Assembly (NCBI GenBank): GCA_018818425.1 | Contig: JAHISB010000018.1 | Location: 16,390 to 80,389, forward strand | Source: Patescibacteria group bacterium | GTDB lineage: Bacteria; Patescibacteriota; Patescibacteriia; UBA1558; UBA10009 | Direction of reading: 5' to 3' | DNA: 64,000 nt | The notes under the pieces: model-generated | Seen by the model: only the letters and a program-made list of their open reading frames with translations | Told to the model about the DNA's origin: nothing | The model's database searches: none | Part shown: in pieces, positions 1,931 through 41,627 of the stretch | How positions within the stretch are numbered: position 1 is the first letter of the stretch | Layout: each line of letters starts with the position of its first letter | Program-made: the position numbers and the translations under genes

Positions 1931-4705
1931 ATGCCTAAACAACAAAAATTCATAATAATCGACGGTAATGCGCTTTTGCACCGCGCTTTCCATGCCCTGC
2001 CGCCTATGACTTTAAAGAACGGCACTTTGGTTAATGCTGTTTATGGCTTTACTTCCATTCTGTTAAAGATTATTAAAGAGCTGAAGCCGGACTATATCTG
2101 CGCCGCTTTTGACAGAAAAGGCGTTACTAAACGAGCCGAGGAATTTGCCGATTATAAAGCCCAGCGCAAAAAACAGCCCGACGAACTGTATCAGCAGATT
2201 CCGATTATTGAGGATATTCTGAAAGCTTTTAAAGTGCCGGTGATTGATTCTAAAAAAGAGGGCTACGAAGCTGATGATGTTATTGGCACGGTAGTCGCTA
2301 AACTTAAAAAGGATGAACCCGACATTAAATCGGTGATCGTCACCGGCGATTTGGATACTCTGCAGCTGGTTGATGAAAACGTGGAAGTCTTTACGCTTAA
2401 AAAGGGTATTTCCGATACCATTACCTATGCTCCCCAAACAGTTAAAGAAAGGTACGGCCTGGAGCCGGAGCAACTGGTGGACTTTAAAGCTCTGCGGGGA
2501 GACCCTTCCGACAATATCCCGGGGGTCAAGGGCATTGGCGAAAAAACCGCTGCCAAGTTGATTCAAAAATTCGGCGCTTTGGAAAATTTATATCAAGCCA
2601 TAAAGAATGATGATAAAAAACTGGATGATTTTAAAGAAAGAATTATCAACCTGCTTAAAGAGCGGGAAAAAGAAGCTTTTTTAAGTAAGCGGCTGGTTAC
2701 GATTCAAACCGACTTACCCACTAATTTTAAATTGGCTGATACCAAAATTCAGGGCTTTGACCAAAAAGCGGTTATTAAATTATTTACCGACCTTGAGTTT
2801 AAAAGCTTGATGAATAGAATCCCGATGGCAATGGCCGGCGATGTTGAAAAATTGCCGGATGGTGAAAAAACAAAAGGTTCGCAAAGTAAAATGGAATTTA
2901 TGAAATTGGAGACCAGGCCGAAAAATAAAAAATTCAAATATCAATTAATTGATAATGATGATAAATTCAATAAATTTTTTGATGATTTAAAAAAACAATC
3001 TTTATTTGCTGTTGATACCGAAACTACTTCTTTGGATGTTTGGCAGGCAGAGCTTTTGGGGTTAAGCATTTCCTGGCAAGCAGATGTTGCCTACTATATT
3101 GTAAAGAATGGCGAATGGCTGAAAAAATTAAAACCGATTCTGGAAGATCCTAAAATTAAAAAAGTCGGCCATCATTTAAAGTATGATTACGAAGTCTTGA
3201 TGCAAAATGACATTGTTATTGATGGAATTGAATTTGACACTTTGCTGGCCGCCTATTTATTGACTTCGGGCAACCGCAATTTAAATCTTGATGATCTGGT
3301 TTTCAGCGAGCTTAAGTATCAAATGCAGCCCATTGAAGAGCTGATTGGCCCTAAGGGTAAAAAACAAATGTCAATGAAAGATGTTCCGCTGGAACAGCTT
3401 TCGTGGTATGCCTGCGAAGACGCGGATTTTTCTTTAAAGCTTTATAAAAAACTAAAGCCGCAGCTGGAGCAGGCGGCTAATCTGGGCCTGCTGCAAAAAA
3501 TGGAAGTTCCTTTAATTCCGGCGCTGGCAATTATGGAAAAAACCGGCATTAAAATTGATGTTGATTTTCTCAAAAAGATGAATCAAAAATTTAATCAGAA
3601 AATTAATTCTCTGGAAGATAAAATCTATAAACTGGCCGGCGCTAAATTCAATATTGCTTCGCCTCTTCAGCTTAAAGAAATCCTTTTTGAAAAGTTGAAA
3701 ATTTCCACCGCCGGCTTGAAAAAAATTAAAACCGGCATCTCCACGGCCGCCGCGGAGCTGGAAAAAATGAGAGGCAAGCATCCAATTATCGACCTGATTT
3801 CTGAATTTAGAGAATATGCCAAACTGCAAAACACCTATATTAAAGCTCTGCCTAAATTAGCTGATCCCCGAACCGACCGAGTTCATACCAGCTTCAACCA
3901 GACCATTGCGGCCACCGGGCGTTTTTCTTCTTCTGATCCTAATTTGCAGAATATTCCTATCCGGACGGAAATTGGCAGAGAAATTAGAAAGGCCTTTATT
4001 GCCGAGCGGGGCTATCGGATTATTTCGGCCGACTATTCGCAGATTGAACTGCGGGTAATTGCTTCTTTAGCTGGTGACCAGAAAATGATTGACTATTTTA
4101 AAAAAGGCGAGGATATCCATGCCCGCACCGCCGCCAATATCAACAAGATTGATATTAAAGAAGTCACTCGCCAGCAGCGCCGGGCCGCCAAAGAAGTCAA
4201 TTTCGGGGTAATTTACGGCCTGGGCTATGTTGGCCTGGCCCAACGCACAGGCATTAGCCGCGAAGAGGCCCAAAGTTTTATTGACCAATATTTTGCCGTC
4301 CATCCGCAGATTAAAAACTGGCTGGCAGAAACCAAAAAAATAGCCCACAAGCTCGGCTATGTTGAAGACCTTTTTGGCCGCCGCAGATATCTGCCCGATA
4401 TTAATTCCGGGGTGCAGATGCTTAAAGCGGCGGCCGAACGCATGGCTATTAATATGCCGATTCAGGGCACAGCCGCCGATCTTTTAAAACTTTCGATGAT
4501 TGAAATTGATAATCAACTACCGGCCTTCTCACCTAAATCTAAAATGCTCCTGACTGTTCATGATGAACTGGTTTTTGAAGCGCCGGCCAAAGAAGTTGAC
4601 AGAGTCTCTAAATTAGTTAAAAATATAATGGAAAATATTTATAAATTAAAAGTCCCCATAGAGGTTGATGTCCATTCAGCCAAAAACTGGGGTGACTGTA
4701 AATAA
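1931..4705 (+). CDS. polA: DNA polymerase I (5'-3' exonuclease, 3'-5' exonuclease and polymerase domains)
   Basis: 924 aa. The N-terminus matches the 5'-nuclease domain (IIDGNALLHRAFHAL, GVKGIGEKTA). The C-terminus has the polymerase motifs (RRAAKEVNFGVIYG, LLTVHDELVFE). Confidence 0.95.
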   Translation: MPKQQKFIIIDGNALLHRAFHALPPMTLKNGTLVNAVYGFTSILLKIIKELKPDYICAAFDRKGVTKRAEEFADYKAQRKKQPDELYQQIPIIEDILKAFKVPVIDSKKEGYEADDVIGTVVAKLKKDEPDIKSVIVTGDLDTLQLVDENVEVFTLKKGISDTITYAPQTVKERYGLEPEQLVDFKALRGDPSDNIPGVKGIGEKTAAKLIQKFGALENLYQAIKNDDKKLDDFKERIINLLKEREKEAFLSKRLVTIQTDLPTNFKLADTKIQGFDQKAVIKLFTDLEFKSLMNRIPMAMAGDVEKLPDGEKTKGSQSKMEFMKLETRPKNKKFKYQLIDNDDKFNKFFDDLKKQSLFAVDTETTSLDVWQAELLGLSISWQADVAYYIVKNGEWLKKLKPILEDPKIKKVGHHLKYDYEVLMQNDIVIDGIEFDTLLAAYLLTSGNRNLNLDDLVFSELKYQMQPIEELIGPKGKKQMSMKDVPLEQLSWYACEDADFSLKLYKKLKPQLEQAANLGLLQKMEVPLIPALAIMEKTGIKIDVDFLKKMNQKFNQKINSLEDKIYKLAGAKFNIASPLQLKEILFEKLKISTAGLKKIKTGISTAAAELEKMRGKHPIIDLISEFREYAKLQNTYIKALPKLADPRTDRVHTSFNQTIAATGRFSSSDPNLQNIPIRTEIGREIRKAFIAERGYRIISADYSQIELRVIASLAGDQKMIDYFKKGEDIHARTAANINKIDIKEVTRQQRRAAKEVNFGVIYGLGYVGLAQRTGISREEAQSFIDQYFAVHPQIKNWLAETKKIAHKLGYVEDLFGRRRYLPDINSGVQMLKAAAERMAINMPIQGTAADLLKLSMIEIDNQLPAFSPKSKMLLTVHDELVFEAPAKEVDRVSKLVKNIMENIYKLKVPIEVDVHSAKNWGDCK

Positions 4706-4848: not shown

Positions 4849-5346
4849 ATGTTTCTAACGGTCCACGCCGCATCAGGAATTTTTATCGGCAGCCAGGTTT
4901 CTGCCCCTTGGCTGGCTTTTATTTTGGGTTTTGTATCCCACTGGCTTTTGGACTTTATACCGCACGGCGATGAAAAAGTGATTGACCGCTCAAAATTTTC
5001 CGAAAGCCGGCTAAAAAAAATGCTTTTTTATGTGGCTGCCGCAGATACCTTGGGTATTATTATTCTTTTTTACTTTCTTATCTCAACAGAAACCATTGTC
5101 TTGACTTCAGGCATTCTTTGGGGCATGCTGGGAGCAGTGGCTCCGGATTATTTATGGGGTCTCCATAAAATTACCCGCATCAGGGTCTTAAAGCCCCTGC
5201 ATAAAATTCACAACTGGTTTCATCTTAAGCTGACTAATCCCCGATACCCCCGATTAAATCGGGGACGGGGACTGCCTTTCAAGCTTGGCAGTTTAATCCA
5301 GCTGGCCGCTTTTATTGCTTTTTTTCTCTTGATTATTTACTTATAA
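4849..5346 (+). CDS. hypothetical polytopic membrane protein carrying an in-frame palindromic mini-element insertion
   Basis: Hydrophobic helices throughout. The segment 5225..5280 encodes NPRYPRLNRGRG and contains the perfect palindrome ccccgattaaatcgggg. Confidence 0.45.
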   Translation: MFLTVHAASGIFIGSQVSAPWLAFILGFVSHWLLDFIPHGDEKVIDRSKFSESRLKKMLFYVAAADTLGIIILFYFLISTETIVLTSGILWGMLGAVAPDYLWGLHKITRIRVLKPLHKIHNWFHLKLTNPRYPRLNRGRGLPFKLGSLIQLAAFIAFFLLIIYL

Positions 5347-6466: not shown

Positions 6467-6733
6467 TTACTTCTTTATTTTTCTGACTCTGGCAACTAAG
6501 CGCGACTTTTTCCGATTGGCTGTATTCTTTTTAATTACGCCCCTTTTAACCGCTTTATCAATAGCTTTTTGGGTTTGTTTAAGCAAATCCTGAACCTTGT
6601 CCATTTCTCCGGCTTCTGCGGTTTTTAAGGTTTTTTTAATTAAATCTTTGACAGTTTTTTTACGCTTGATATTTCTGACTGTTCTCTTTTGGTCCCGGCG
6701 CAGCGCTTTTTTTGCTGATGGTGTTGTTGGCAT
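6467..6733 (-). CDS. rpsT: 30S ribosomal protein S20
   Basis: 88-aa basic protein. Starts MPTTPSAKKALRRDQKRTVRN, which is the S20 signature. Confidence 0.9.
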   Translation of the reverse strand: MPTTPSAKKALRRDQKRTVRNIKRKKTVKDLIKKTLKTAEAGEMDKVQDLLKQTQKAIDKAVKRGVIKKNTANRKKSRLVARVRKIKK

Positions 6734-6865: not shown

Positions 6866-7111
6866 ATGAAAGTCGAATACATTTCATCCAAAGAACAAAT
6901 GCTGATTGCCGAAAATTTGTATAATATTACCGATTCTATAGAAGCGGCTAAACGATTAGAAGAAGAATGCGGTATCAAAATTACATACGGCAAATCAGTT
7001 GAGCTTAGGGACTTTGCCCGCAAGCTGGATAAAACCAAGTTCTTTAATTGGGAAATTGAAAAAGCTATCGAAAAACATAGCGGGCATAAAATTCGTTTAC
7101 GCGATTTATAG
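6866..7111 (+). CDS. small hypothetical protein (81 aa, charged and helical)
   Basis: ORF only. It converges on and overlaps the 3' end of the truB fusion gene by about 47 nt. Weak RBS. Confidence 0.25.
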   Translation: MKVEYISSKEQMLIAENLYNITDSIEAAKRLEEECGIKITYGKSVELRDFARKLDKTKFFNWEIEKAIEKHSGHKIRLRDL

Positions 7112-8405
7112 CTTCCAGCGGCTTAATCAAATATTTAGAATAATTATCTTTTGTAAGCTGATCCAACCGAACCGCCTCATTAATATTAAAATCCCCGATC
7201 GCGGTTCTTTTTAGTTCTTCAAGAATTGCCCCGGTACCCAACTTTTGACCAATGTCATGCGCCAGCGTTCTGATATATGTTCCGGTTGAACAAACGATTC
7301 TAATTTCAAAATTTGGGATTTGGGATTTGGGATTTGGGATTTGTTTGTTTCTTGCTCCGCCTTGAGCTTGTCGAAAGGTGGGTTGTATCTTGTATCTTAA
7401 TAATTCAATCTTATATATTTCAATCTCCGATGGTTTCCGAGCAATGGTTTTACCCTGACGAGCAATCTCATATAATTTTTTTCCATCGACCTTCTTGGCC
7501 GAAAACATCGGCGGCAACTGCTGCTGTTTACCAATGAACGATTTTAAAATGTTTTGGATTTTGGATTTTGATATTTGAGAATTATTTAGTCCCCGATTTA
7601 TTCGGGGATGGAATTTAGGATTTACCTCTCGGCCATGAGCTCGAGGCCGAATGGGAATTTTACCCGTCCTATCATAAGTATCCGACGTAACTCCCAAAGT
7701 AATGGCCGCTTCGTAAATTTTTGACAGCACATTAAACACTCCTGCAATTTTAGTTGCCTGTCCTATAGCGCAAATCAAAAGCCCGGTGGCAAACGGATCG
7801 AGCGTGCCGGTATGGCCGATTTGTTTGATGCCGGTGATGGAACGAAGCTTGGCCACAACATCGTGCGAAGTCCAATCCATGGGCTTATTAATTAATAAAA
7901 ATCCTGCTCGCCTCGATTCGGCGAAGCGGGCCTGCTCATCCTCTAATGCTTTCCTAATGCTTTTACCCTTGCAGACATCTTCTTTAAACGGTTTAAGTCT
8001 CTCTATTTTAAAATGTAAATCGGAGTTAACCGCTAAATCATGCAAGCCCTTAACATAGTTCTGCTGATCATAGCCCATGCCAATAACATCGGGTTTTTCT
8101 TGTTTAATGATTTTATAAGGATCGTCCAGATCGCCTAAAACAACCTTCCAATCCCCCGGTCTTTTGGTCTTTGATAAAACATCCTTTAATTGATTCAATC
8201 TTTTATTTTCATCAAAGTAAGGATTCCTGCCTTTCATTTTTTTTACATTTTCGTCTCTGGCAATTATAACAACTAAAAAATTATCTGACCCTAAACCGGA
8301 GCGTAGCGACTGGTTTAGGGCACCCAGCTCTTTAGCTTGTTCAATTAAATTGATATGTCCGGGATGGATTATATCAAAAGTTCCCGCAACTAGTACTTTA
8401 GTCAT
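7065..8405 (-). CDS. truB: fusion protein: N-terminal cytidylyl/adenylyltransferase-like domain (HxGH) + C-terminal tRNA pseudouridine(55) synthase TruB
   Basis: The N-terminus GTFDIIHPGHINLIEQAKELG is a nucleotidyltransferase HxGH motif. The TruB catalytic motifs lie further on (GHTGTLDPFATGLL, KIYEAAITLG, QLPPMFSAKKVDGKKLYE). Two in-frame repeat inserts at 7312..7380 and 7552..7660. Confidence 0.8.
   Translation of the reverse strand: MTKVLVAGTFDIIHPGHINLIEQAKELGALNQSLRSGLGSDNFLVVIIARDENVKKMKGRNPYFDENKRLNQLKDVLSKTKRPGDWKVVLGDLDDPYKIIKQEKPDVIGMGYDQQNYVKGLHDLAVNSDLHFKIERLKPFKEDVCKGKSIRKALEDEQARFAESRRAGFLLINKPMDWTSHDVVAKLRSITGIKQIGHTGTLDPFATGLLICAIGQATKIAGVFNVLSKIYEAAITLGVTSDTYDRTGKIPIRPRAHGREVNPKFHPRINRGLNNSQISKSKIQNILKSFIGKQQQLPPMFSAKKVDGKKLYEIARQGKTIARKPSEIEIYKIELLRYKIQPTFRQAQGGARNKQIPNPKSQIPNFEIRIVCSTGTYIRTLAHDIGQKLGTGAILEELKRTAIGDFNINEAVRLDQLTKDNYSKYLIKPLEAINRVNEFYARYVFR
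7312..7380. repeat. (TTTGGGA)4 heptamer array + mini-element half, in frame inside truB
   Basis: atttgggatttgggatttgggatttgggatttgtttgtttcttgctcc... Confidence 0.8.
7552..7660. repeat. (TTTTGGA)3 + palindromic mini-element (tccccgatttattcgggga), in frame inside truB
   Basis: Homologous to the uvrB insert and to the intergenic copy at 34558..34614. Confidence 0.8.
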
Positions 8406-9117: not shown

Positions 9118-11286
9118 CTAAAGTTCAGTCTTTTTATTTCTTAATTTTTTAAAATCAGCAATTTGGTCTCTTAATTCCGCTGCTTTTTCAAACTCTAAAT
9201 TACTCGCGGCCATAGCCATCTGATTCTCCAAGTCCTCAATAAGATGTTTAAGCTCGTCTTTGGGAATATCTTTGAGTTTATCGGTCCTTGGTCTTTGGTC
9301 TTTGGTTCTCTCCCGCACATTCTCAACCTTAACATCTTTCTTAATTGATTGAGGTTCAACGTTGTGCCTGCGATTATATTTCTCCTGAATTTTCCGGCGG
9401 CGGTTGACTTCTTTAATGGCCCTTTTCATCGAACCGGTTTGTTTATCAGCGTACATTATAATTCTACCTTCAATATGCCTGGCAGCTCTGCCCATAGTTT
9501 GGACTAATGATGTTTCGCTACGAAGAAATCCTTCTTTATCAGCGTCTAAAATAGCAATCAGCGAGACCTCGGGCAAATCAAGGCCTTCGCGAAGTAAGTT
9601 GATGCCCACCAAAACATCGTATTTTCCAAGCCGAAGATCCCTGATAATTTCAATCCTTTCTAAAGTGTGAATTTCGGAATGCAAATACTGAACTTTAAGG
9701 CCTTTTTCCTGCAGATATTCTGTAAGATCTTCGGCTAAACGTTTAGTTAAAGTGGTAACTAAAACTCTTTGCTTTTTTTTGACTGTAGCTGTGATCTCTT
9801 TAATTAAATCTGCCACTTGATTCTTGGTTTTTTTGACTTCCACGCTTGGTTCCAAAAGTCCGGTCGGACGAATGAGTTGTTGGGCGACTGCGGAATTTGA
9901 GTCTTCAATCTTCAGTTTTAAATCTTCGTAATCCACCACCTCTTTTGTAAGCGCCCCGGCCTTCATTTTTTTAGTTTTAATTCCCGACATGCGATACTCG
10001 TAAGCAGCCGGCGTGGCCGAAACAAAGACTGCTTTGCTTATATGATTTTCAAACTCCTTGAATTTTAACGGCCGGTTATCTAAAGCTGATGGCAAACGAA
10101 AGCCAAAATCGACCAGGGTCTGTTTTCTGGCCCGGTCGCCATTATACATAGCGTTAAGTTGAGGCACCGTCATATGCGATTCATCAATGAACAGCAGAAA
10201 ATCATCAGGATAATAATCAATCAATGTCGCCGGCTGTTCCCCCGGTTCCCGGTTGGTCAGGTACCTTGAATAGTTTTCTATGCCGTTGCAGTAGCCGGTT
10301 TGTTCTATCATTTCTAAATCGTACTTGGTTCTTTCTTCGATTCGTTGGGCTTCTAGTAGTTTATTTTGATTCTTAAGTTGAGTGGCTCTTTCCTTCATTT
10401 CTTTTTTGATGGATTCCAGCGATTGTTTTAATCTTTCCTCGGGCGTGACAAAATGCTTGGCCGGAAAAACTTCAATGTTTTGGATTTTGGATTTTGCTCG
10501 CCCTGAGCGAAGCCGAAGGGGAATTTGAGATTTGTTTGTTTCTTGTCCTCGATTAAATCGGGGATTGGAACTTGGTACTTGTTGACCTGTGATTAGGTCA
10601 ATGATAGATAACTTTTCAATAAGATCGCCATTAAATTCAACCCTTATTACCTCATTCTTCTCTTCAATTGGAAAAATATCCAAAACATCGCCTTTGACTC
10701 TAAAATTGCCGCGGTAAAAATCATAGTCATTTCTTTTGTACTGAAGATCGGTTAAGTGACGGAACAACTTATCGCGCTTAATTTTTTGTCCGACAGCCAA
10801 CTTGATTCTCATATCCTTATAATCTGCCGGACTGCCTAAACCATAAATGCACGAAACTGATGCCACAATCAATACATCCTGACGGGTTAATAAAGCGTTG
10901 GTTGAAGCGTGGCGCAGTCTGTCGATTTCCTCGTTAACATCAGTTTCCTTTTCTATATAAGTGCCGGACTGGGGAATGTAAGCTTCGGGCTGATAGTAAT
11001 CGTAATAGCTGACAAAATAATGCACCGCATTTTCCGGAAAAAATTCCTTGAATTCTGATGCTAATTGAGCGGCCAATGTTTTGTTATGAGAGATAACCAG
11101 GGTTGGTTTTTGGATTTTCTCAATAACACACGCTACAGTGTAAGTCTTGCCACTGCCAGTGACTCCCAACAAAGTTTGATGTTTATAGCCCCTTTTTATT
11201 CCGCTGGCTAATTTATCAATAGCTTGCGGCTGGTCGCCAGTCGGCTTGAACTTGGATTTTAACTTAAATTTTGGCATAATTAACAA
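9118..11286 (-). CDS. uvrB: excinuclease ABC subunit B, with an in-frame mini-element insertion of about 110 nt
   Basis: Walker A GVTGSGKT, helicase motifs, the UvrB/UvrC interaction domain at the C-terminus (ELRDQIADFKK). The insert at 10477..10585 encodes NPRFNRGQETNKSQIPLRLRSGRAKSKIQN. Confidence 0.95.
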   Translation of the reverse strand: MLIMPKFKLKSKFKPTGDQPQAIDKLASGIKRGYKHQTLLGVTGSGKTYTVACVIEKIQKPTLVISHNKTLAAQLASEFKEFFPENAVHYFVSYYDYYQPEAYIPQSGTYIEKETDVNEEIDRLRHASTNALLTRQDVLIVASVSCIYGLGSPADYKDMRIKLAVGQKIKRDKLFRHLTDLQYKRNDYDFYRGNFRVKGDVLDIFPIEEKNEVIRVEFNGDLIEKLSIIDLITGQQVPSSNPRFNRGQETNKSQIPLRLRSGRAKSKIQNIEVFPAKHFVTPEERLKQSLESIKKEMKERATQLKNQNKLLEAQRIEERTKYDLEMIEQTGYCNGIENYSRYLTNREPGEQPATLIDYYPDDFLLFIDESHMTVPQLNAMYNGDRARKQTLVDFGFRLPSALDNRPLKFKEFENHISKAVFVSATPAAYEYRMSGIKTKKMKAGALTKEVVDYEDLKLKIEDSNSAVAQQLIRPTGLLEPSVEVKKTKNQVADLIKEITATVKKKQRVLVTTLTKRLAEDLTEYLQEKGLKVQYLHSEIHTLERIEIIRDLRLGKYDVLVGINLLREGLDLPEVSLIAILDADKEGFLRSETSLVQTMGRAARHIEGRIIMYADKQTGSMKRAIKEVNRRRKIQEKYNRRHNVEPQSIKKDVKVENVRERTKDQRPRTDKLKDIPKDELKHLIEDLENQMAMAASNLEFEKAAELRDQIADFKKLRNKKTEL
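10477..10585. repeat. (TTTTGGA)3 + palindromic mini-element (cctcgattaaatcgggg), in frame inside uvrB
   Basis: tttgtttgtttcttgtcctcgattaaatcggggattggaacttggtacttg aligns with 34558..34614. Confidence 0.8.
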
Positions 11287-12272: not shown

Positions 12273-13298
12273 ATGGAAATAACTCTTTTAAATAAGCCAC
12301 GATTTGATGAATTTGCCGGCAATCAAAAATACAGTCAATTTTTACAGTCTTGGGACTGGGGCGATTTCCAAAAAAACGTCGGCCATAGAGTCTGGCGACT
12401 GGGCGTTGCTTTAGATAATCAGATTATTGCCTCGGCCCAAATTATTGAGCATCTTTTGCCTTTTAATAAAAGTTATCTTTACTGCCCTCGCGGTCCGGTA
12501 ATAGCAGAAAATTTATCTGACAAACAAAAACTCACGGCCTTAAAACTGATTCTAAGCAAAGCCCGCGACATTGCCATTTCAACTCCCCAAACCGAAGAAA
12601 TCTTCTTCCGCCTAGAGCCAACCCATCGTCTACAACCTACAACCTACCCACTACAACCTACACCCTACAACCTAAGAAAAACAAAGCCCATCCAGCCCGC
12701 CGATACTCTGATTTTAGACCTAACTTTGCCGAAAGAACAATTGCTGACAAACATGCGCCAAAAAACCAGATACAACATCCGCCTGGCCGAAAAACATGGA
12801 GTAACAATTAAAGAAGAGAGTGGCTTTTCCAAAGTCTGGCCATTTTTCGAACAAACTTCTAAAAGAGATAAATTCGGCCTTCATCCCAAAAAATACTATC
12901 AAAAAATGGTTGAGGATTCCGATTTAATAAGGATGTGGGCCGCAGATTATAAAGGAAAAATAGTTGCCGCTAATATTGTCAGTTATTTCGGCAATACCGC
13001 CACTTATGTTCACGGCGCTTCTGACTATCAGCAACGTTCAATGATGGCGCCGTTTCTTTTACAATGGGAAGTGATTAAAAACGCCCAGGAGCAGGGCTAT
13101 AAATATTATGACTTTCATGGAATTGCGCCAAACCATAACAAAAATCACCCTTGGCACGGCATCACTAGATTTAAAAAAGGCTTTGGCGGCCAAGTAATTC
13201 ATTATCCCGGAACTTTTGATTTTATTTATCAGCCATTGAGTTATAATATATATAAGGCCTTGCGAAAATTAAACCTTCTTATCAGAAAAATTTATTAA
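12273..13298 (+). CDS. FemAB-family aminoacyltransferase (peptidoglycan interpeptide bridge formation), with an in-frame (ACAACCTAC)n repeat insert
   Basis: SWDWGDFQ...LYCPRGPV and the C-terminal GFGG region resemble the FemABX family. The repeat at 12630..12675 encodes LQPTTYPLQPTPYNL. Confidence 0.65.
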   Translation: MEITLLNKPRFDEFAGNQKYSQFLQSWDWGDFQKNVGHRVWRLGVALDNQIIASAQIIEHLLPFNKSYLYCPRGPVIAENLSDKQKLTALKLILSKARDIAISTPQTEEIFFRLEPTHRLQPTTYPLQPTPYNLRKTKPIQPADTLILDLTLPKEQLLTNMRQKTRYNIRLAEKHGVTIKEESGFSKVWPFFEQTSKRDKFGLHPKKYYQKMVEDSDLIRMWAADYKGKIVAANIVSYFGNTATYVHGASDYQQRSMMAPFLLQWEVIKNAQEQGYKYYDFHGIAPNHNKNHPWHGITRFKKGFGGQVIHYPGTFDFIYQPLSYNIYKALRKLNLLIRKIY

Positions 13299-14763: not shown

Positions 14764-16080
14764 ATGAAAACTTTTGTAAAGAAACTTCTACCTCCTTTTA
14801 TTCTGGGCTGGTACCACCAAGTACTGGCATTTTTAGCTATGGTCATTTATGGTTTTCCTTCTAATAAATTGATTGTTATTGGCGTAACCGGCACCAACGG
14901 CAAATCAACGGTCGTCAATTTAATCGGCGAAATTTTAAAAATTTCGGGCCATCAAGTTGCCTGGACCGCCACCACCAACTTTTTTCTTGACGGCCAGGAG
15001 CGGCTTAACGACCAAAAAATGACCATGCCGGGCAGATTCAAAACTCAAAAATTCTTAGCAGATAGCGTAAGGGCCGGCTGTAAATATGCCATAATCGAAA
15101 CTTCATCGGAGGGCATTAAACAATACCGGCATTGGGGCATTAATTATGATCTGGCGGTTTTTACTAACCTGACTCCCGAACATATCGAAGCCCACGGCAG
15201 TTTTGAAAACTATAAAAAAGCCAAAGGCAGACTCTTTAAGCATCTGACAAAATTCCCAAAGAAAAAAATCAACAATCAGCTGATTGATAAAACGATTATA
15301 GTAAATACTGACGATCAATATGCCGATTACTTTTTAAATTTTCCGGCTGACAAAAAATTGGCTTTCTCAATTAAAAAAAAATCCGACTTTAGGGCAACCA
15401 GCATTAAGCTTGATTCTAACGGCACTTCTTTCACCCTACAACCTACCCCCTACAACCTACCCCCTACAACCTACAAAACTAATTTACTGGGGAAAGTTAA
15501 CATCTACAACTGCCTCTCGGCTATTGCCGTTGCCAAAGCTCTTGGAATCGACAGCGATAAAATCCAGCAAGCCTTACTAAAATATAAAGGCATGCCCGGA
15601 CGTTTTGAATTTATTGATAAGGGACAAAAATTCAAAGTGATGATTGACTATGCGCCCGAGCCCGAGTCAATGAAAAAATTGTATGAAACTTTGCAATTAT
15701 TTAAGTTTAATAAAATAATTCATGTTTTAGGTTCCTGCGGCGGCGGCCGAGATAAGTCCAGAAGACCTATTTTAGGAAAATTAGCCGCAGAAAACGCTGA
15801 CATTGTGATAGTCACTAACGAAGATCCTTACGACGAAGACCCGCAACAAATTATTGATCAAGTAGCGGCCGGCGCCGAAGCTAATGGTAAAATTCTTAAT
15901 CAAAACTTATTTAAAATATTGGATAGACGCGAAGCAATTAAAAAAGCTTTGTCATTGGCTAATGATAATGATTTAGTTTTGCTGACCGGCAAGGGTTGCG
16001 AGCAGCATATTTGCGTTACTCGCGGGAAGAAAATTAAGTGGGATGATCGAGAGGTTGTTAGAGGGTTGTTGAAAATATAA
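14764..16080 (+). CDS. Mur ligase family protein (MurE-like), with an N-terminal TM segment and an in-frame (ACAACCTAC)n repeat
   Basis: P-loop VIGVTGTNGKST, the Mur ligase middle and C-terminal motifs (TGKGCEQH...WDDRE). The repeat at 15433..15477 encodes LQPTPYNLPPTTY. Confidence 0.7.
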   Translation: MKTFVKKLLPPFILGWYHQVLAFLAMVIYGFPSNKLIVIGVTGTNGKSTVVNLIGEILKISGHQVAWTATTNFFLDGQERLNDQKMTMPGRFKTQKFLADSVRAGCKYAIIETSSEGIKQYRHWGINYDLAVFTNLTPEHIEAHGSFENYKKAKGRLFKHLTKFPKKKINNQLIDKTIIVNTDDQYADYFLNFPADKKLAFSIKKKSDFRATSIKLDSNGTSFTLQPTPYNLPPTTYKTNLLGKVNIYNCLSAIAVAKALGIDSDKIQQALLKYKGMPGRFEFIDKGQKFKVMIDYAPEPESMKKLYETLQLFKFNKIIHVLGSCGGGRDKSRRPILGKLAAENADIVIVTNEDPYDEDPQQIIDQVAAGAEANGKILNQNLFKILDRREAIKKALSLANDNDLVLLTGKGCEQHICVTRGKKIKWDDREVVRGLLKI

Positions 16081-27498: not shown

Positions 27499-27798
27499 TT
27501 AATTAAATACAACTTTTAATTCTTTACCAAAGGCCTTGGCTAATTTATCCAGCATTTCCACAGTAAAATTCTGCTGTCCTGTTTCCATTCTGGCAATATT
27601 ACTCTGCGTAGTGCCGATTTTTTTGGCAACTTCCGACTGGGTCATTCCCATTTTCTTGCGCAACCTAATTAGACTGAGAGAAATCTCTAGCTGTTTGCCG
27701 TAATAATCGAACAACTTTTTATATTCAGGATTTTTTAAGTCCTCCCTTAATATATCATCAAAATCCGTTAGCTTTATTTTTTTTGATTTAGAGATCAT
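27499..27798 (-). CDS. HTH XRE-family antitoxin (HigA-like)
   Basis: MTQSEVAKKIGTTQSNIARMETG helix-turn-helix. Overlaps the upstream toxin gene by 11 nt. Confidence 0.7.
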   Translation of the reverse strand: MISKSKKIKLTDFDDILREDLKNPEYKKLFDYYGKQLEISLSLIRLRKKMGMTQSEVAKKIGTTQSNIARMETGQQNFTVEMLDKLAKAFGKELKVVFN

Positions 27799-28159
27799 AT
27801 TTATGTAGATTGTTCATAAAGTCATAATAATTATTTAAAGCTTTTCTAATTTCTTTCCTTGGCGCCTTTTGGGATTTTTTAAAGAAGGCGTGTAATAAAA
27901 TTATATTTTTATTAATAAAAGAAAAATAAAATACTCTATGCCGGTTTCGCCCAAAATCAACTTTCAACTCTCGAATCTTGCCTGTTATATGCCTTGAAAG
28001 CGGTTCATCTAGATAGCCTTTACTTTCTTTTAAATACTCTAAATATTTTTCTATTTTTAACCTGTCTTTAATATTTATTTTTAATAGATAATCTAAAACC
28101 GGCTCTTTTTCGTTTCGGCTATTCTTATAGAATTTTACCTTATATTCACTATATATCAT
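27788..28159 (-). CDS. RelE/ParE-superfamily toxin of the HigB / phage Gp49-like type
   Basis: 123 aa. KESKGYLDEPLSRHITGKIRELKV...ILLHAFFKKSQKAPRKEI resembles Gp49/HigB. The toxin sits upstream of the antitoxin, as in higBA operons. Confidence 0.55.
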   Translation of the reverse strand: MIYSEYKVKFYKNSRNEKEPVLDYLLKINIKDRLKIEKYLEYLKESKGYLDEPLSRHITGKIRELKVDFGRNRHRVFYFSFINKNIILLHAFFKKSQKAPRKEIRKALNNYYDFMNNLHKYDL

Positions 28160-30087: not shown

Positions 30088-30967
30088 TTGTAAGAATACC
30101 TCGCGTTGTTAGCACTTTTTAGGTATAGTGTTAACAATATGACTATACATAAATGGACTAAACTTACCCCCGTCAAAAGACGGGAAATAGCTGATAAATA
30201 CTTTAAACAAGACATCAGAATAGCAACCTTAGCCAGAGATTACCAAACAAGTAGAAATACTATCTACAATGTCATCAATCGGGCAAGGATGAATGATTTC
30301 AGTATTCATAAAAGCATCAATAAGCGTTACAGGTGTTTGGAGTACGGCCTCAAACGATTATCAAAGATTGAAGCCGCATTTGAGAAAAAGCTTAAAAACA
30401 AAGCCCAACGCTACAACAAGAGCTATCCCGGGGAAATGATGCATTCCGACAACACTCAACTGCCCATGCTCAAGGGAGAAACTACTCAAGACAAGCCGGA
30501 AAAGCTCTATGTGGCCATTGATGACTTTTCCAGAGAGCTGTACGCCACCATATTGCCGGATAAAACCCAGTTTTCCTCCGCAACGTTCTTACTGCAAGTG
30601 CTTGAGGAGTGCCCTTACACTATAGAAACATGGTACACTGATAATGGCACTGAATACAAAGGTAATCCCAAAGAACATGTTTTTATGCAACTGTGTCAGA
30701 AGCATGACATTAAACAGTCGTTTACTAGGGTAAAAACTCCAAAGACCAATGGCAAGGCCGAGCGGGTTATTAGGACTCTTTTCCAGATGTGGCATTCAAG
30801 GACCAAGTTTAAAAGTAACGTGCATCGAAAGCAAGAATTGATCAGATTTGTGAATTACTACAATACTGTTAAACCCCATAAAGGTATTGATAATCTTACT
30901 CCTTTTGAAAAATTAACTAACTATTTTTATCCTAAAGAACTGTGAACAACGCTGTTACTTCTTACAA
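30088..30967 (+). mobile_element. IS481-family-like insertion sequence with imperfect terminal inverted repeats of about 26 bp, flanked by a TTTAT(T) target-site duplication
   Basis: IRL TGTAAGAATACCTCGCGTTGTT pairs with the reverse complement of the IRR at 30941..30967, TGTAAGAAGTAACAGCGTTGTT. The flanking tttatt repeats at 30083..30088 and 30968..30973. One transposase ORF inside. Confidence 0.7.
30139..30945 (+). CDS. DDE transposase (N-terminal HTH + integrase core, IS481-like)
   Basis: HSDNTQLP...YVAIDDFSRELYA...WYTDNGTEY...KTNGKAERVIRT, which is the rve DDE core. Start taken at MTIHKW. Confidence 0.85.
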   Translation: MTIHKWTKLTPVKRREIADKYFKQDIRIATLARDYQTSRNTIYNVINRARMNDFSIHKSINKRYRCLEYGLKRLSKIEAAFEKKLKNKAQRYNKSYPGEMMHSDNTQLPMLKGETTQDKPEKLYVAIDDFSRELYATILPDKTQFSSATFLLQVLEECPYTIETWYTDNGTEYKGNPKEHVFMQLCQKHDIKQSFTRVKTPKTNGKAERVIRTLFQMWHSRTKFKSNVHRKQELIRFVNYYNTVKPHKGIDNLTPFEKLTNYFYPKEL

Positions 30968-30978
30968 TTTATTGTACC

Positions 30979-31863
30979 CTAGCGGGAATGGGTAATGCCA
31001 ATTTTCCAAACATTTCTTTCTAAAAAGGCTTCGATTGTTTGCCGGCCGGCTTTATTTATTAGGTTTGAGTGTGAAAATTTATTATTTTTTGCGTAATCAA
31101 CAAGGGTCATAATTTCTTTATCTTCTAAATACGCCAATCGTTTATGATAGCTGTTAGTAAGCGCTCTTCCGACTATTTCTTCCATAATTAAAGTTCTGCC
31201 TTTTTTATCAAATTCTTTAAACGCTTCATAATATTTCTGCCTATCAATAAATTTTATATTTATAGGAACAAACCCTTCCCGTATTAATAAATAATTATTA
31301 ATAACGCGCCCAATGCGGCCGTTGCCGTCAACAAATGGATGAATATGTTCAAAAGTAAGATGTAATTTTGCTATACGATTGATAATATTTTCATGGCTAG
31401 CGGCATTATACTCGGTCAGCATTTTTTCTAAACGATACGCCACTTCTTTTGAATTGGGGGCAATGTAATTTCCGACTCTAACATATTCACCATTTTTTCT
31501 GAACCTGCCGGCAATATCATCACGAATATTTGAAATTAACATTTTGTGCAGTAATAAAATAACCTCAAGAGTGAGTTCTTGTTCCTTAGCTTTTTTACCT
31601 ATATATAACACAACTCGCGCCAAATTTTTTGCTTCAAAAAATTCTCGTTCAATAATAAATCTATCTAAGTCAATTTGTAAAAGTATTTTTTCGGTTTCTT
31701 CAAGAGTAAGAGTACTATTTTCTATAGCATTAGAGTTATATACTTGTTCGGCAACTTCGGCTTCCAAGATAAGCTTAATTAGCGCGTCCTTGCCTGTAGA
31801 CGCCTTATAGTATCTTTCCCGAAGAGAATCTATTTTATTGTAAACATTAAGTATTTTTACCAT
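30979..31863 (-). CDS. Fic family protein
   Basis: Fic motif HPFVDGNGRIGR. Confidence 0.85.
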   Translation of the reverse strand: MVKILNVYNKIDSLRERYYKASTGKDALIKLILEAEVAEQVYNSNAIENSTLTLEETEKILLQIDLDRFIIEREFFEAKNLARVVLYIGKKAKEQELTLEVILLLHKMLISNIRDDIAGRFRKNGEYVRVGNYIAPNSKEVAYRLEKMLTEYNAASHENIINRIAKLHLTFEHIHPFVDGNGRIGRVINNYLLIREGFVPINIKFIDRQKYYEAFKEFDKKGRTLIMEEIVGRALTNSYHKRLAYLEDKEIMTLVDYAKNNKFSHSNLINKAGRQTIEAFLERNVWKIGITHSR

Positions 31864-38977: not shown

Positions 38978-40402
38978 ATGCTTTACTTATTAATCATTAT
39001 TTTTTACCTGTTATTTACCTGGGTATCGCATCGAGATATCCGCTGGGGCATTTATTTAACTCTGTTATTTTTGCCTTCTTATCTGATTCGTTTTCAGATT
39101 TTAGGAATGCCGGCGACCCTTTTAGAAGGCATGATCTGGCTGCTTTTTATTGTCTGGCTTTTAAAACTTCGCCAAGAAAAAGGCCTGACCCTAAATCCAG
39201 TAAAATGGGTAAAGAACATCCTTAATCCTCAATCCTTAATCCTCAAAGAACAAAATCCAATTCCTAGATTTTTCAGATTACCGATGATTTTATTCCTCGC
39301 CGCCGCCACTATTTCGGCCTTTGTCTCCCCCCAGCTTCAGGCCGCTTTAGGCATCTGGAAAGCTTACTTTGTTGAAGCGCTGATGTTCTTTATTATTTTT
39401 ATCTATAACATCAGAACATCAGCACAGGTAAAACAGGTTATCAGGATTTTAGGAGTTTTGACGATTGTTATAGGGCTATTTGCCATTTACCAAAAACTGA
39501 CCGGGGATTTAATTCCCCACCCCTACTGGGCAGCCGAAGCCACCAGAAGAGTAACCACTTTCTTTGGCTATCCCAATGCCAATGCGTTATTGATAGCGCC
39601 GGTTTTGATGTTGACTATTGGCAATTTGTTGACTGATAAAAAATTTAAACTGATTGTCATTAATTTACTGGTTCTAATTCTTGGAATCTTAACGATTCTC
39701 TGGGCCGGCTCAACCGGCGCTCTGCTCGGCATTGCCGCCGGCCTAATCTGCTTCCTGCTCTTCTGCAAAAAAACCAGAATTATAACCATAGCGGTTTTAG
39801 CCATAGTTCTGATTGTCAGCTTCACTCAACTGCCGGCCGCAGACTACCTAAAACAAACAGCCGGCTCGCTAGTTTACACCGATCTGCCCCTGGTGCCTTC
39901 CGACGTCCAGATCCGCTACCAGCAATGGAAAGAAACTTTAACCATGCTCAAAGACACGCCGATTTTTGGCGCAGGTCTTAACGGTTATCAAACTTTAATG
40001 ATTCCCTATCATCAATTTTGGCATATTGAAATTTTTCTTTATCCTCATAATTTCTTTTTAAATTTTTGGTCAGAAACTGGACTATTGGGATTAATCTCAA
40101 TTATATGGATTTTAGTATCCTTTTTTATTATAAGTTTTAAGTTTTCAGTTTTTAATCTTAAATCAATAAAAAACTTAAAACTGAAGACTGAAAACTATAA
40201 TCAGAGTTTCACTTACCAAATATTGACTATTACAACGTCTTGCGCTATGATTACTCTCCTTGTTCACGGCCTGGTTGATGTTCCTTATTTTAAAAACGAT
40301 CTGGCGATATTGTTTTGGATAATAATCGGAATAATAATAATTTTATACAACGAACGGAGGCGTGCGAGAGTGGTTGAATCGGACGGTCCCGAAAACCGTT
40401 AG
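38978..40402 (+). CDS. O-antigen ligase / Wzy_C-family membrane protein; its 3' end reads 48 nt into tRNA-Ser
   Basis: Polytopic. The periplasmic loop with FGAGLNGYQ...H...FW resembles O-antigen ligase family proteins. An in-frame (ATCCTTAATCCTCA)2 repeat sits at 39219..39248. Confidence 0.6.
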   Translation: MLYLLIIIFYLLFTWVSHRDIRWGIYLTLLFLPSYLIRFQILGMPATLLEGMIWLLFIVWLLKLRQEKGLTLNPVKWVKNILNPQSLILKEQNPIPRFFRLPMILFLAAATISAFVSPQLQAALGIWKAYFVEALMFFIIFIYNIRTSAQVKQVIRILGVLTIVIGLFAIYQKLTGDLIPHPYWAAEATRRVTTFFGYPNANALLIAPVLMLTIGNLLTDKKFKLIVINLLVLILGILTILWAGSTGALLGIAAGLICFLLFCKKTRIITIAVLAIVLIVSFTQLPAADYLKQTAGSLVYTDLPLVPSDVQIRYQQWKETLTMLKDTPIFGAGLNGYQTLMIPYHQFWHIEIFLYPHNFFLNFWSETGLLGLISIIWILVSFFIISFKFSVFNLKSIKNLKLKTENYNQSFTYQILTITTSCAMITLLVHGLVDVPYFKNDLAILFWIIIGIIIILYNERRRARVVESDGPENR

Positions 40403-40568: not shown

Positions 40569-41627
40569 TTATACTTTCTGATATCTTGTCGCTCTGCCCT
40601 GGCCGATGCGTTCGATCTTTTTTAGTCGCAGCAAAACTTCCAATGCCTGCGAAACAGTCGGCCGCGGCACATTTGTCGCCCTGGTTATTTCTAAAGGCGC
40701 GGCTTCGCCCGTCTTTTCCAAATATTGCCAGACAGCAAGTTGTTTTGGTGACAACAATTTTTCAATATTTTCTTTGGACAAAAAATCAACGGCCATTTTA
40801 CCCTGCACCAAACAAATATTCAGAAAAAACTCCAGCCAATTCGCAATGTCAGGCTGTTTATTTTTTAAATTTTTCTGGCTTCGCCTCAAGGCAATATAAT
40901 AATCAGCCTTATTATCCTCAATTAATTTTTCATGCGATAAGTAAGGAGCATAGGCATAGCCGGTTTTTAACATTAATAAATTGGTTAGAATCCGGGACAG
41001 TCTGCCGTTGCCGTCCTGGAACGGATGAATGGCCAAAAATTCCACCAAAAAATTGCCGATGATTAACAACGGATGGATGGTTTTTAGGGCTAAAGCTTCT
41101 TTTGTCCAGTCAACCAGTTCCTGCATTTGTTTGGGCGTAAGATAAGCCGGGGTAGTGTCGAAAACAACGCCGATTGATTTTCCAGACGCGTCAAACATTT
41201 CCACCTTATTTTCGCCTTTCTTGTACTCGCCCAAATGCCCCTTGTCTTTATCAGAGTATTTAAGCAGTTCTTTATGAAAATGTTTGATGGCGCTTTCAGT
41301 AAAAGATATGTGCTGCCAGGAGTTAAAAGTATTCTCCAAAAGTTCGTAATATCCTTTAACTTCCTGCTTGTCCCTATTGCTGAATTTTTGGGTTTTAAAG
41401 CCACGGATAAACGCCTCAACCTCTTCATCCGTCATTTTAGCTCCTTCAATGCGCGTCGAAGCTCCCGCAGAAGTGATGAGGGTCCAGCGCTTTAAACGCC
41501 CCAAGGCTTGCGGGTTTAATTTAACCCCCCCAATCCACTGGCCTTTTAACAGATCGATTTGGTTGATTAAAGACCAGATTTTTTCAGAAATATTGCTGAT
41601 TCTTTTGTTATATTGGTTCATAATCAT
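40569..41627 (-). CDS. Fic family protein
   Basis: Fic motif HPFQDGNGRLSR, plus a C-terminal winged-helix DNA-binding region. Confidence 0.85.
   Translation of the reverse strand: MIMNQYNKRISNISEKIWSLINQIDLLKGQWIGGVKLNPQALGRLKRWTLITSAGASTRIEGAKMTDEEVEAFIRGFKTQKFSNRDKQEVKGYYELLENTFNSWQHISFTESAIKHFHKELLKYSDKDKGHLGEYKKGENKVEMFDASGKSIGVVFDTTPAYLTPKQMQELVDWTKEALALKTIHPLLIIGNFLVEFLAIHPFQDGNGRLSRILTNLLMLKTGYAYAPYLSHEKLIEDNKADYYIALRRSQKNLKNKQPDIANWLEFFLNICLVQGKMAVDFLSKENIEKLLSPKQLAVWQYLEKTGEAAPLEITRATNVPRPTVSQALEVLLRLKKIERIGQGRATRYQKV

Follow-up and report, generated by a model that had tools for sequence, protein, structure and literature searches.

A predicted RibL-type nucleotidyltransferase fused to the tRNA pseudouridine synthase TruB in Patescibacteria

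The fusion gene and its TruB module

In a 64,000-nucleotide (nt) stretch of DNA from a Patescibacteria group bacterium (assembly GCA_018818425.1, contig JAHISB010000018.1; the whole stretch is referred to below as the window), a single minus-strand gene joins a nucleotidyltransferase (NTase) module to the tRNA pseudouridine-55 synthase TruB. Its open reading frame (ORF), taken from the ORF list and the sequence, occupies positions 7065 to 8405, runs from ATG to stop without interruption, and encodes 446 amino acids (aa). A Pfam search of the protein returned CTP_transf_like (PF01467) at aa 6 to 130 (E value, 1.2e-12; 48.6 bits against a cutoff of 21), TruB_N (PF01509) at aa 188 to 378 (E value, 8.4e-43), and TruB_C_2 at aa 379 to 431 (E value, 3.1e-12). 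Among the NCBIfam models, the TruB equivalog TIGR00431 scored 220.5 bits (cutoff, 151.45) and the generic domain model TIGR00125, cyt_tran_rel, scored 53.9 bits (cutoff, 27.7). The domain search and the intact ORF thus bore out the first-pass annotation, made from the letters of the sequence, which had proposed that one polypeptide combines an HxGH nucleotidyltransferase with TruB; the motif that it quoted, GTFDIIHPGH, was located at aa 8 to 17. That annotation had not named the strand.

The fusion is real and is not an artifact of assembly or sequencing, because the same architecture of NTase plus TruB was found in more than 100 independently assembled proteins of Patescibacteria when it was sought in relatives, as the first-pass annotation had suggested. 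These proteins came from NCBI, JGI, ENA, and Logan assemblies of Komeili-, Jackson-, Kuenen-, and Sungbacteria and of other Parcubacteria. PF01467, PF01509, and PF16198 were present in nearly all of the 120 best homologues, and a 100% identical protein (MBU1130849.1) is held at NCBI under the name [quoted passage not shown] Around the junction (aa 155 to 170; DNA ∼7895 to 7940), neither a stop codon nor a frameshift was present, and alignment revealed a short interdomain linker that is kept among orthologues as RKAxEDxQ-AGFLLINKP. An AlphaFold2 model of the fusion protein had a mean predicted local distance difference test (pLDDT) score of 83.4 and a predicted template modeling (pTM) score of 0.83, with low confidence only at segments specific to this copy. 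The coordinates of the gene, its parts, and its conserved neighbors are collected in Table 1.

Judged by its score above the equivalog cutoff, its intact motifs, and its fold match, the C-terminal module is a TruB, and pseudouridine-55 synthase activity is predicted for it. D203, Y231, and G375-T376-Y377-x-R379 (GTYIR) were invariant in the fusion alignment and were matched in the TruB of Thermotoga maritima. The module aligned to residues 4 to 223 of the 309 residues of the T. maritima protein and ended where the PUA domain would begin; proteins of the Candidate Phyla Radiation (CPR) that consist of TruB only were equally short (245 to 260 aa). Foldseek searches with the model gave 2ab4, 1r3e, and 1k8w as top matches (E values, 2e-25 to 5e-24). 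With the crystallized TruBs of Escherichia coli (1k8w) and T. maritima (1r3e), the module shares ∼30 to 33% identity, the fold, and the catalytic motifs. Unlike them, it lacks a C-terminal PUA domain, is preceded by an additional enzyme domain, and contains two copy-specific loop inserts.

Table 1. Features of the fusion gene and its conserved neighbors in the window
Feature	Coordinates	Strand	Basis or remark
Whole fusion gene	7065..8405	-	446 codons; stop at 7065-7067; 100% identical to NCBI MBU1130849.1
RibL-type HxGH NTase module, aa 1-157, predicted FMN adenylyltransferase	7935..8405	-	PF01467, archaeal RibL HMM, 3glv profile and fold
HPGH, HxGH nucleotide-binding signature (H14-H17) within G8-x-F10-D11-x-x-H14-x-G16-H17	8355..8366	-	Alignment
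Insert 1, aa 29-41, ALNQSLRSGLGSD	8283..8321	-	Absent from all orthologues; pLDDT ∼60
Linker insert, 8 aa, aa 159-166, ARFAESRR	7908..7931	-	Orthologues have no insert and read EDxQ-AGF
TruB tRNA pseudouridine-55 synthase catalytic module (predicted), aa 167-446, without PUA	7068..7907	-	TIGR00431, T. maritima alignment, Foldseek
GTLDP motif with catalytic Asp203	7794..7808	-	Invariant in fusion alignment; aligns with GTLDP of T. maritima TruB crystal sequence
Variable loop with insert 2, ∼aa 251-286	7548..7655	-	Alignment; pLDDT 48-64
Insert 3, ∼aa 343-365	7311..7379	-	Absent from most orthologues; pLDDT 57-59
rpsT (ribosomal protein S20), kept downstream neighbor	6467..6733	-	ORF; Ribosomal_S20p downstream in L001, L002, L006, L088
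uvrB, kept upstream neighbor	9118..11286	-	ORF; aligned to UvrB of L001, L003, L006

Affinities of the N-terminal module

The N-terminal domain was compared with hidden Markov models (HMMs) of the two kinds of flavin adenine dinucleotide (FAD) synthase. One HMM was built from 126 archaeal RibL-type proteins, several of which are named "FAD synthase" (NCBI) or "FAD synthetase" (JGI), and contained no CPR sequence, to prevent circularity; the other was built from 40 RibF N-terminal domains encoded directly after truB in ordinary bacteria. The archaeal-only RibL HMM matched the window domain with 105 to 112 bits over HMM positions 2 to 133 of 139, and it matched the fusions of CPR bacteria with a median of 113 to 121 bits. 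The RibF HMM gave the window domain 17.8 bits, against 111.8 bits with the archaeal model. Moreover, the Pfam model FAD_syn (PF06574) reached 13.8 bits, under its cutoff of 27, and covered aa 3 to 29 only, the fusion protein remained far under the cutoffs of the NCBIfam RibF models, and no Flavokinase match (PF01687) was found in it by Pfam. The curated NCBIfam cutoffs of other HxGH families were likewise not reached (bits/cutoff: rfaE_dom_II, 42/181.5; PPAT PRK00777, 41/104; TagD TIGR01518, 32/165; NadD, 14/315).

The top match in both single-sequence and profile searches of the PDB was 3glv, a structural-genomics protein of Thermoplasma volcanium and an archaeal homologue. The profile of the N-terminal domain matched it end to end with 133 bits, far ahead of ECT (95 bits, split over two halves), TagD (63 bits), PPAT (∼29 bits), NadR/NMNAT (24 to 26 bits), and the RibF structure 3op1 (24 bits). 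3glv was also the best PDB match of the modeled domain in Foldseek (TM score, 0.85; root mean square deviation, 2.4 Å; 31% identity), with lower matches to HldC (TM score, 0.66) and TagD (TM score, 0.72). The domain therefore belongs to the fold that the first-pass annotation had assumed when it listed RibL, NMNAT, and TagD as its likenesses, of which RibL is the nearest (3glv, 133 bits, versus 63 for TagD and ∼24 for NMNAT). The nearest sequences from outside the CPR were archaeal proteins of ∼140 aa, including proteins of Lokiarchaeota and crenarchaeal fusions with DUF357; the Lokiarchaeota proteins were taken as RibL orthologues in a study of Entamoeba (PMC11423594).

The HxGH signature was invariant in an alignment of both domain orders of the fusion (see below), archaeal FAD synthases, and relatives fused to flavokinase. 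Across both orders and the archaeal proteins, G8, F10, D11, H14, G16, H17, K58, R69, G111, D113, and Q114 did not vary. On the scores with the archaeal and RibF HMMs and these invariant residues, the N-terminal domain is RibL-type and apparently catalytically intact. The first-pass annotation had considered it a possible relic of ribF, which, by these comparisons, it is not.

Like RibL (EC 2.7.7.2; Methanocaldococcus jannaschii MJ1179 and the Entamoeba enzyme EhFADS), which consists of a single HxGH domain of ∼140 to 150 aa, the window module is one such domain, spanning aa 1 to 157 with a 13-aa insert. It shares the motifs GTFDxxHPGH, ARD, and LG(Y/P)DQ with archaeal RibL-type proteins, matches the archaeal-only HMM from end to end, and has an archaeal protein as its best structural match. 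In contrast to RibL, it is covalently joined to TruB, and the partner kinase RibK was not found near the fusion. Two cysteines have been implicated in M. jannaschii RibL; Cys146 of the window module is kept only among close relatives. With RibF, the bifunctional riboflavin kinase/flavin mononucleotide (FMN) adenylyltransferase, the module has in common the HxGH superfamily, the predicted adenylyltransferase chemistry, and the genomic partnership with truB. It is, however, not orthologous to RibF, has no flavokinase, and is fused to TruB rather than encoded adjacent to it.

A phmmer search with the N-terminal domain against 1.84 billion representatives returned 1,213 proteins at an E value of ≤1e-3, 266 of them at ≤1e-10, and matches of unusual length turned out to be NTases fused to other partners. 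Three of these (P0304, P0314, and P0396) carry Flavokinase (PF01687). Their NTase parts are 40 to 47% identical to that of the window and have every diagnostic residue, including LGYDQ; the archaeal RibL HMM gives these fusions 114 bits. In locus L091, the genes for riboflavin synthase and lumazine synthase come directly after the gene for P0304. That this NTase is joined to riboflavin kinase within a riboflavin operon constitutes strong gene-fusion and gene-context evidence that the subfamily adenylylates FMN. These proteins differ from the window protein in having riboflavin kinase as partner instead of TruB, and they supply the link to flavins that the window gene lacks. The protein at L091 (3840 to 5700) is in itself a compact "RibF-like" enzyme of 258 aa that combines a RibL-type NTase with a bacterial Flavokinase domain, whereas canonical RibF has an FAD_syn N-terminal domain instead.

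Other partners were NUDIX (four proteins: P0307, P0333, P0342, and P0348), Ham1 (four proteins: P0268, P0337, P0372, and P0313), 5-formyltetrahydrofolate (5-FTHF) cyclo-ligase, peptidase M15, and AsnC-type regulators (P0321 and P0373 being among the fused proteins), as well as two partners related to tRNA, a PP-loop ATPase (P0308) and the D-aminoacyl-tRNA deacylase DTD2 (P0319). The RibL-type NTase is thus a promiscuous fusion partner, and its pairing with nucleotide pyrophosphatases recurs: at locus L092, a standalone NTase gene overlaps a Ham1-plus-NUDIX gene by 4 nt.

Locus, domain order, and copy-specific inserts

Relatives of the fusion occur in two domain orders. A motif census of the top matches counted ∼61 proteins with the order NTase-TruB, as in the window, and ∼46 with the order TruB-NTase. 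Both occupy the same slot, in which rpoB, a Mur ligase gene, femAB, and ruvA/uvrB precede the fusion and rpsT follows it, with holA and polA, in the opposite orientation, beyond. The slot is filled by NTase-TruB in loci L001 and L088 and in the window and by TruB-NTase in loci L003, L004, and L089. Every locus examined has UvrB upstream of the fusion. The first-pass annotation had described the order as reversed relative to that of ordinary bacteria. This holds in the lineage of the window; it does not hold in a sister set of Patescibacteria, where this locus shows TruB-NTase, the canonical order.

When the NTase domains were placed in a neighbor-joining tree, a clean split set each of the two orders, and likewise the archaeal homologues, apart. 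The corresponding tree of the TruB domains, rooted at the midpoint, comprised 47 NTase-TruB proteins, then 12 NTase-TruB proteins with 1 TruB-NTase protein, and then 45 TruB-NTase proteins; the orders were therefore not cleanly separated, and the tree was roughly but not perfectly congruent with the NTase tree. By this congruence, the fusions are judged to be old, with domains that co-evolved. The change of order, which resembles a permutation of whole domains in situ, may go back to tandem duplication with subsequent trimming or to two independent fusions. Since the TruB tree is imperfectly split, we do not put a number on the fusion events.

The truB gene of ordinary bacteria is commonly followed by ribF, as the first-pass annotation had stated. 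Among 74 diverse bacterial truB loci with enough downstream sequence, obtained from a scan of species representatives with TruB motifs, an ORF with an N-terminal HxGH motif followed directly downstream on the same strand in 42, and 40 of these 42 ORFs had a PTAN-like flavokinase motif. The scan returned mostly ordinary truB genes, and only two loci (L008 and L009) covered the fusion. Both records, from binchicken assemblies, bear the title "uncultured Gammaproteobacteria bacterium" and contain the complete gene for the NTase-TruB fusion; this title probably serves as a placeholder or reflects the misclassification of a Patescibacteria bin. An ancestral state with an unfused ribL beside truB was also sought: the standalone relatives P0267 and P0271 do not adjoin truB, and the CPR loci with TruB only have no NTase neighbor. 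One such locus, in a Komeilibacteria genome (L006, positions 2622 to 3404; GCA_026396635.1), encodes a 260-aa TruB alone in the slot between uvrB and rpsT, with intergenic gaps of 62 and 37 nt that leave no room for an NTase module.

The fusion of the window is ∼55 to 60 aa longer than its orthologues owing to four in-frame inserts that consist of hairpin or heptamer-repeat DNA modules. The DNA of insert 1 contains a hairpin with a 9-bp stem (CCCTAAACC...GGTTTAGGG). The loop with insert 2 contains the palindrome CCCCGAATAAATCGGGG, which encodes PRINRG, and the repeat (TTTTGGA)x2.7, and insert 3 comprises a perfect heptamer tandem repeat, (ATTTGGG)x4.7, which encodes KQIPNPKSQIPN (Tandem Repeats Finder, 7311 to 7343, 100% matches). 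Because seven nucleotides do not make up a whole number of codons, a change in heptamer copy number would shift the reading frame. A 23-nt stretch of the fusion gene (7548 to 7570) is identical at 23 of 23 positions to a stretch of uvrB (10474 to 10496).

Besides this block shared by truB and uvrB, the modules that recur include a 23-nt block with 22 of 23 positions identical, a CCCCGA...TCGGGG palindrome encoding PR(I/F/L)NRG, and small GC-rich hairpins. Inserts built from modules were also seen at 10474 to 10564 in uvrB and at 5247 to 5265 in the ORF at 4849 to 5346, and similar modules lie in other ORFs and in intergenic DNA. The inserts were missing from three UvrB orthologues and from the TruB orthologues (in the case of insert 3, from most of them) and were located in loops of low pLDDT. 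They resemble small palindromic elements that colonize coding sequence, such as the Rickettsia palindromic elements. Within the window, the CCCCGA-N6-TCGGGG palindrome was not enriched (3 matches versus 1.5 expected), whereas the heptamer motif TTGGATTTTGGATTTTG was (13 matches with ≤3 mismatches versus 1.25 expected). Tandem repeats of period 7 inside ORFs were located at 7311 to 7343, 7552 to 7570, 10478 to 10496, 12630 to 12674, 15434 to 15476, and 39218 to 39246. LQPTPYNL is encoded by two such repeats, (CTACAAC)x6.4, which lies in the femAB-like ORF, and (CCTACAA)x6, which lies in the Mur ligase ORF.

The remaining gene content of the window is typical of the CPR (polA, holA, rpsT, uvrB, ruvA, femAB, a Mur ligase gene, rpoB/C, recA, ftsK, and many small pilin-like ORFs), several of these assignments having been made by eye. 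Between 48159 and 54848, ∼10 small ORFs each encode a signal or transmembrane segment and the motif GG(I/F)QWMTAGGN(E/A)E, several with a Cys-rich C-terminal tail; by eye, they look like paralogues of TrbC/VirB2-type pilins. Genes related to defense or mobility comprise a GmrSD_N plus HNH gene (392 to 1561), an rve-family integrase or transposase gene (30106 to 30945), and a gene for a Fic-domain protein (30979 to 31863, confirmed by Pfam). A second Fic-like protein (40569 to 41627) and a small, overlapping toxin-antitoxin-like gene pair (27499 to 28159) were noted by eye.

Predicted function and alternatives

The product of the fusion gene is probably a bifunctional protein in which two complete, independent enzymes are joined, an FMN adenylyltransferase of RibL type and a PUA-less TruB; we regard this as the best explanation of the data. 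The N-terminal module would transfer AMP from ATP onto FMN, its predicted substrates, to yield FAD and pyrophosphate by means of HxGH, ARD, K58, R69, and LGYDQ, and the TruB module, with Asp203 as its catalytic residue, would convert U55 in the T-loop of tRNA to pseudouridine, with the two active sites most likely acting independently. In evolutionary terms, the fusion is best viewed as the end point of the widespread operon linkage of truB and FAD synthase in streamlined Patescibacteria genomes, in which a non-orthologous enzyme of RibL type, without riboflavin kinase domain, would have taken the place of RibF. It mirrors an old linkage, since truB directly precedes ribF in most of the sampled loci of ordinary bacteria. 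Since riboflavin kinase is missing from the fusion, FMN would need another source; it would probably be scavenged, plausibly from a host.

Several observations weigh against the assignment as FMN adenylyltransferase. The second NTase motif departs from the canonical ISSTxxR in this copy, which has KGKSIRK, and in most fusions, which have KSSKIR or KSSLL; the corresponding sequence of 3glv is SSSSVRK. EhFADS of Entamoeba, an experimentally active FAD synthase, has a likewise degenerate ISSTxxR motif (PMC11423594). The RibL label of the archaeal reference set rests on database names. The additional fusions of this NTase subfamily, to NUDIX, Ham1, DTD2, and the PP-loop ATPase, leave room for other roles related to nucleotides. 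In the close Komeilibacteria relative, the slot contains only TruB, which means that the NTase module either is not needed in cis or has its gene at another place. Finally, no riboflavin kinase, flavin transporter, or flavoenzyme was found within the 64-kb window by gene calling and by Pfam on the ten ORFs not recognized by eye, a result that applies to the window and says nothing on the rest of the genome.

Among the alternatives, an NTase with another small-molecule substrate, whose likeness to RibL would hold only at the level of the subfamily, appears unlikely. Candidate substrates would be nicotinamide mononucleotide or nicotinic acid mononucleotide (NadM-like), 4'-phosphopantetheine (PPAT), glycerol-3-phosphate or another phospho-alcohol (TagD/ECT-like), and heptose-1-phosphate (HldE/HldC-like). 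In keeping with such a role, Pfam and NCBIfam assign the domain to the generic superfamily only, with weak matches to rfaE domain II, PPAT, and TagD far under the cutoffs, the depositors of 3glv named it "lipopolysaccharide core biosynthesis protein," HldC was the second-best fold match, and relatives are fused to NUDIX or adjoin Ham1 plus NUDIX, pairings that have a parallel in the NadM-Nudix enzymes. However, the RibL-type HMM matched end to end with 112 bits, and the other characterized subfamilies scored far lower (NMNAT/NadR, ∼24 to 26 bits; PPAT, up to ∼29 bits). Moreover, relatives with all diagnostic residues are fused to riboflavin kinase within a riboflavin operon, and the place of the module beside truB mirrors that of ribF. 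It is very improbable that the fusion stems from a sequencing or assembly error that removed a stop codon or shifted the frame, or that the N-terminal domain is a decaying, inactive remnant of ribF. The four odd in-frame inserts in this copy might bring such an origin to mind, and we see no positive evidence for it; the same continuous ORF occurs in more than 100 independent assemblies of several sources, the catalytic residues of the NTase are invariant, the RibF HMM barely responds to the domain, and, apart from the inserts, the structure is modeled with confidence.

A functional fusion, in which the NTase assists tRNA binding by TruB in place of the PUA domain or ties FAD synthesis to the status of tRNA or translation, seems doubtful, although it accords with several features of the family. 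The fusion was retained in both orders over deep divergence with roughly congruent domain trees, the linker is short and conserved, and the pTM score of 0.83 suggests that the two domains are held in a fixed arrangement. In addition, TruB has no PUA domain, in the TruB-NTase order the NTase occupies the exact position of PUA, and the same NTase subfamily is fused to the tRNA-related enzymes PP-loop ATPase and DTD2 deacylase. On the other hand, equally short TruB-only proteins exist at this locus and elsewhere, fully conserved catalytic residues of the NTase favor an enzyme over a binding module, and its very diverse partners (NUDIX, Ham1, peptidase M15, and 5-FTHF cyclo-ligase) are typical of opportunistic fusions. 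We know of no member of PF01467 that acts on RNA. The first-pass annotation had raised the possibility that nucleotidyl transfer is newly coupled to tRNA modification; we found no evidence for such a mechanistic coupling, and both the many unrelated partners of the NTase and the orthologue that consists of TruB only point to an opportunistic fusion. The NTase is not indispensable in cis, because TruB stands alone in the same slot of the Komeilibacteria relative. If the fusion were nevertheless functional, for which the chance is slim, the NTase might provide the grip on tRNA that this PUA-less TruB lacks, or binding of tRNA might gate FAD synthesis and so tie cofactor supply to translational capacity; either would provide the first mechanistic reason for the widespread, unexplained operon linkage of truB and ribF.

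With regard to the reading that we prefer, two independent enzymes in one chain, Parcubacteria have been described as devoid of riboflavin synthesis and of ribF, ribK, and ribL while keeping the flavoenzymes murB and trxB, with FAD synthase listed as missing (Nelson & Stegen, PMC4508563), and RibL has been considered confined to Archaea and absent from Bacteria on the basis of comparative genomics (Rodionov et al., PMC5397151). A need for FAD is also suggested by locus L088, where a DAO-family flavoenzyme is encoded 5 kb from the fusion. Neither a description of a TruB-RibL fusion nor a relevant paper on 3glv was found in the literature, and the public names that we checked read "TruB" only, except for one "adenylyltransferase/cytidyltransferase family protein." Both enzymes are of known kinds; their combination, its broad distribution in the CPR, and the occurrence of an archaeal-type FAD synthase among bacteria are apparently undescribed, and public records do not annotate them. 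The NTase of the fusion may be the FAD synthase that these bacteria were thought to lack.

The fusion thus amounts to a correction of CPR metabolic models and a directly testable hypothesis rather than a new mechanism. A single recombinant protein could be assayed for two activities and would offer a natural test of the functional basis of the linkage between truB and FAD synthase. If the N-terminal module is an active FMN adenylyltransferase, hundreds of database annotations that read "TruB" only would be corrected, an archaeal-type cofactor enzyme would prove widespread in bacteria, displacing RibF beside truB, and the missing last step of FAD synthesis would be supplied in a large part of the CPR.

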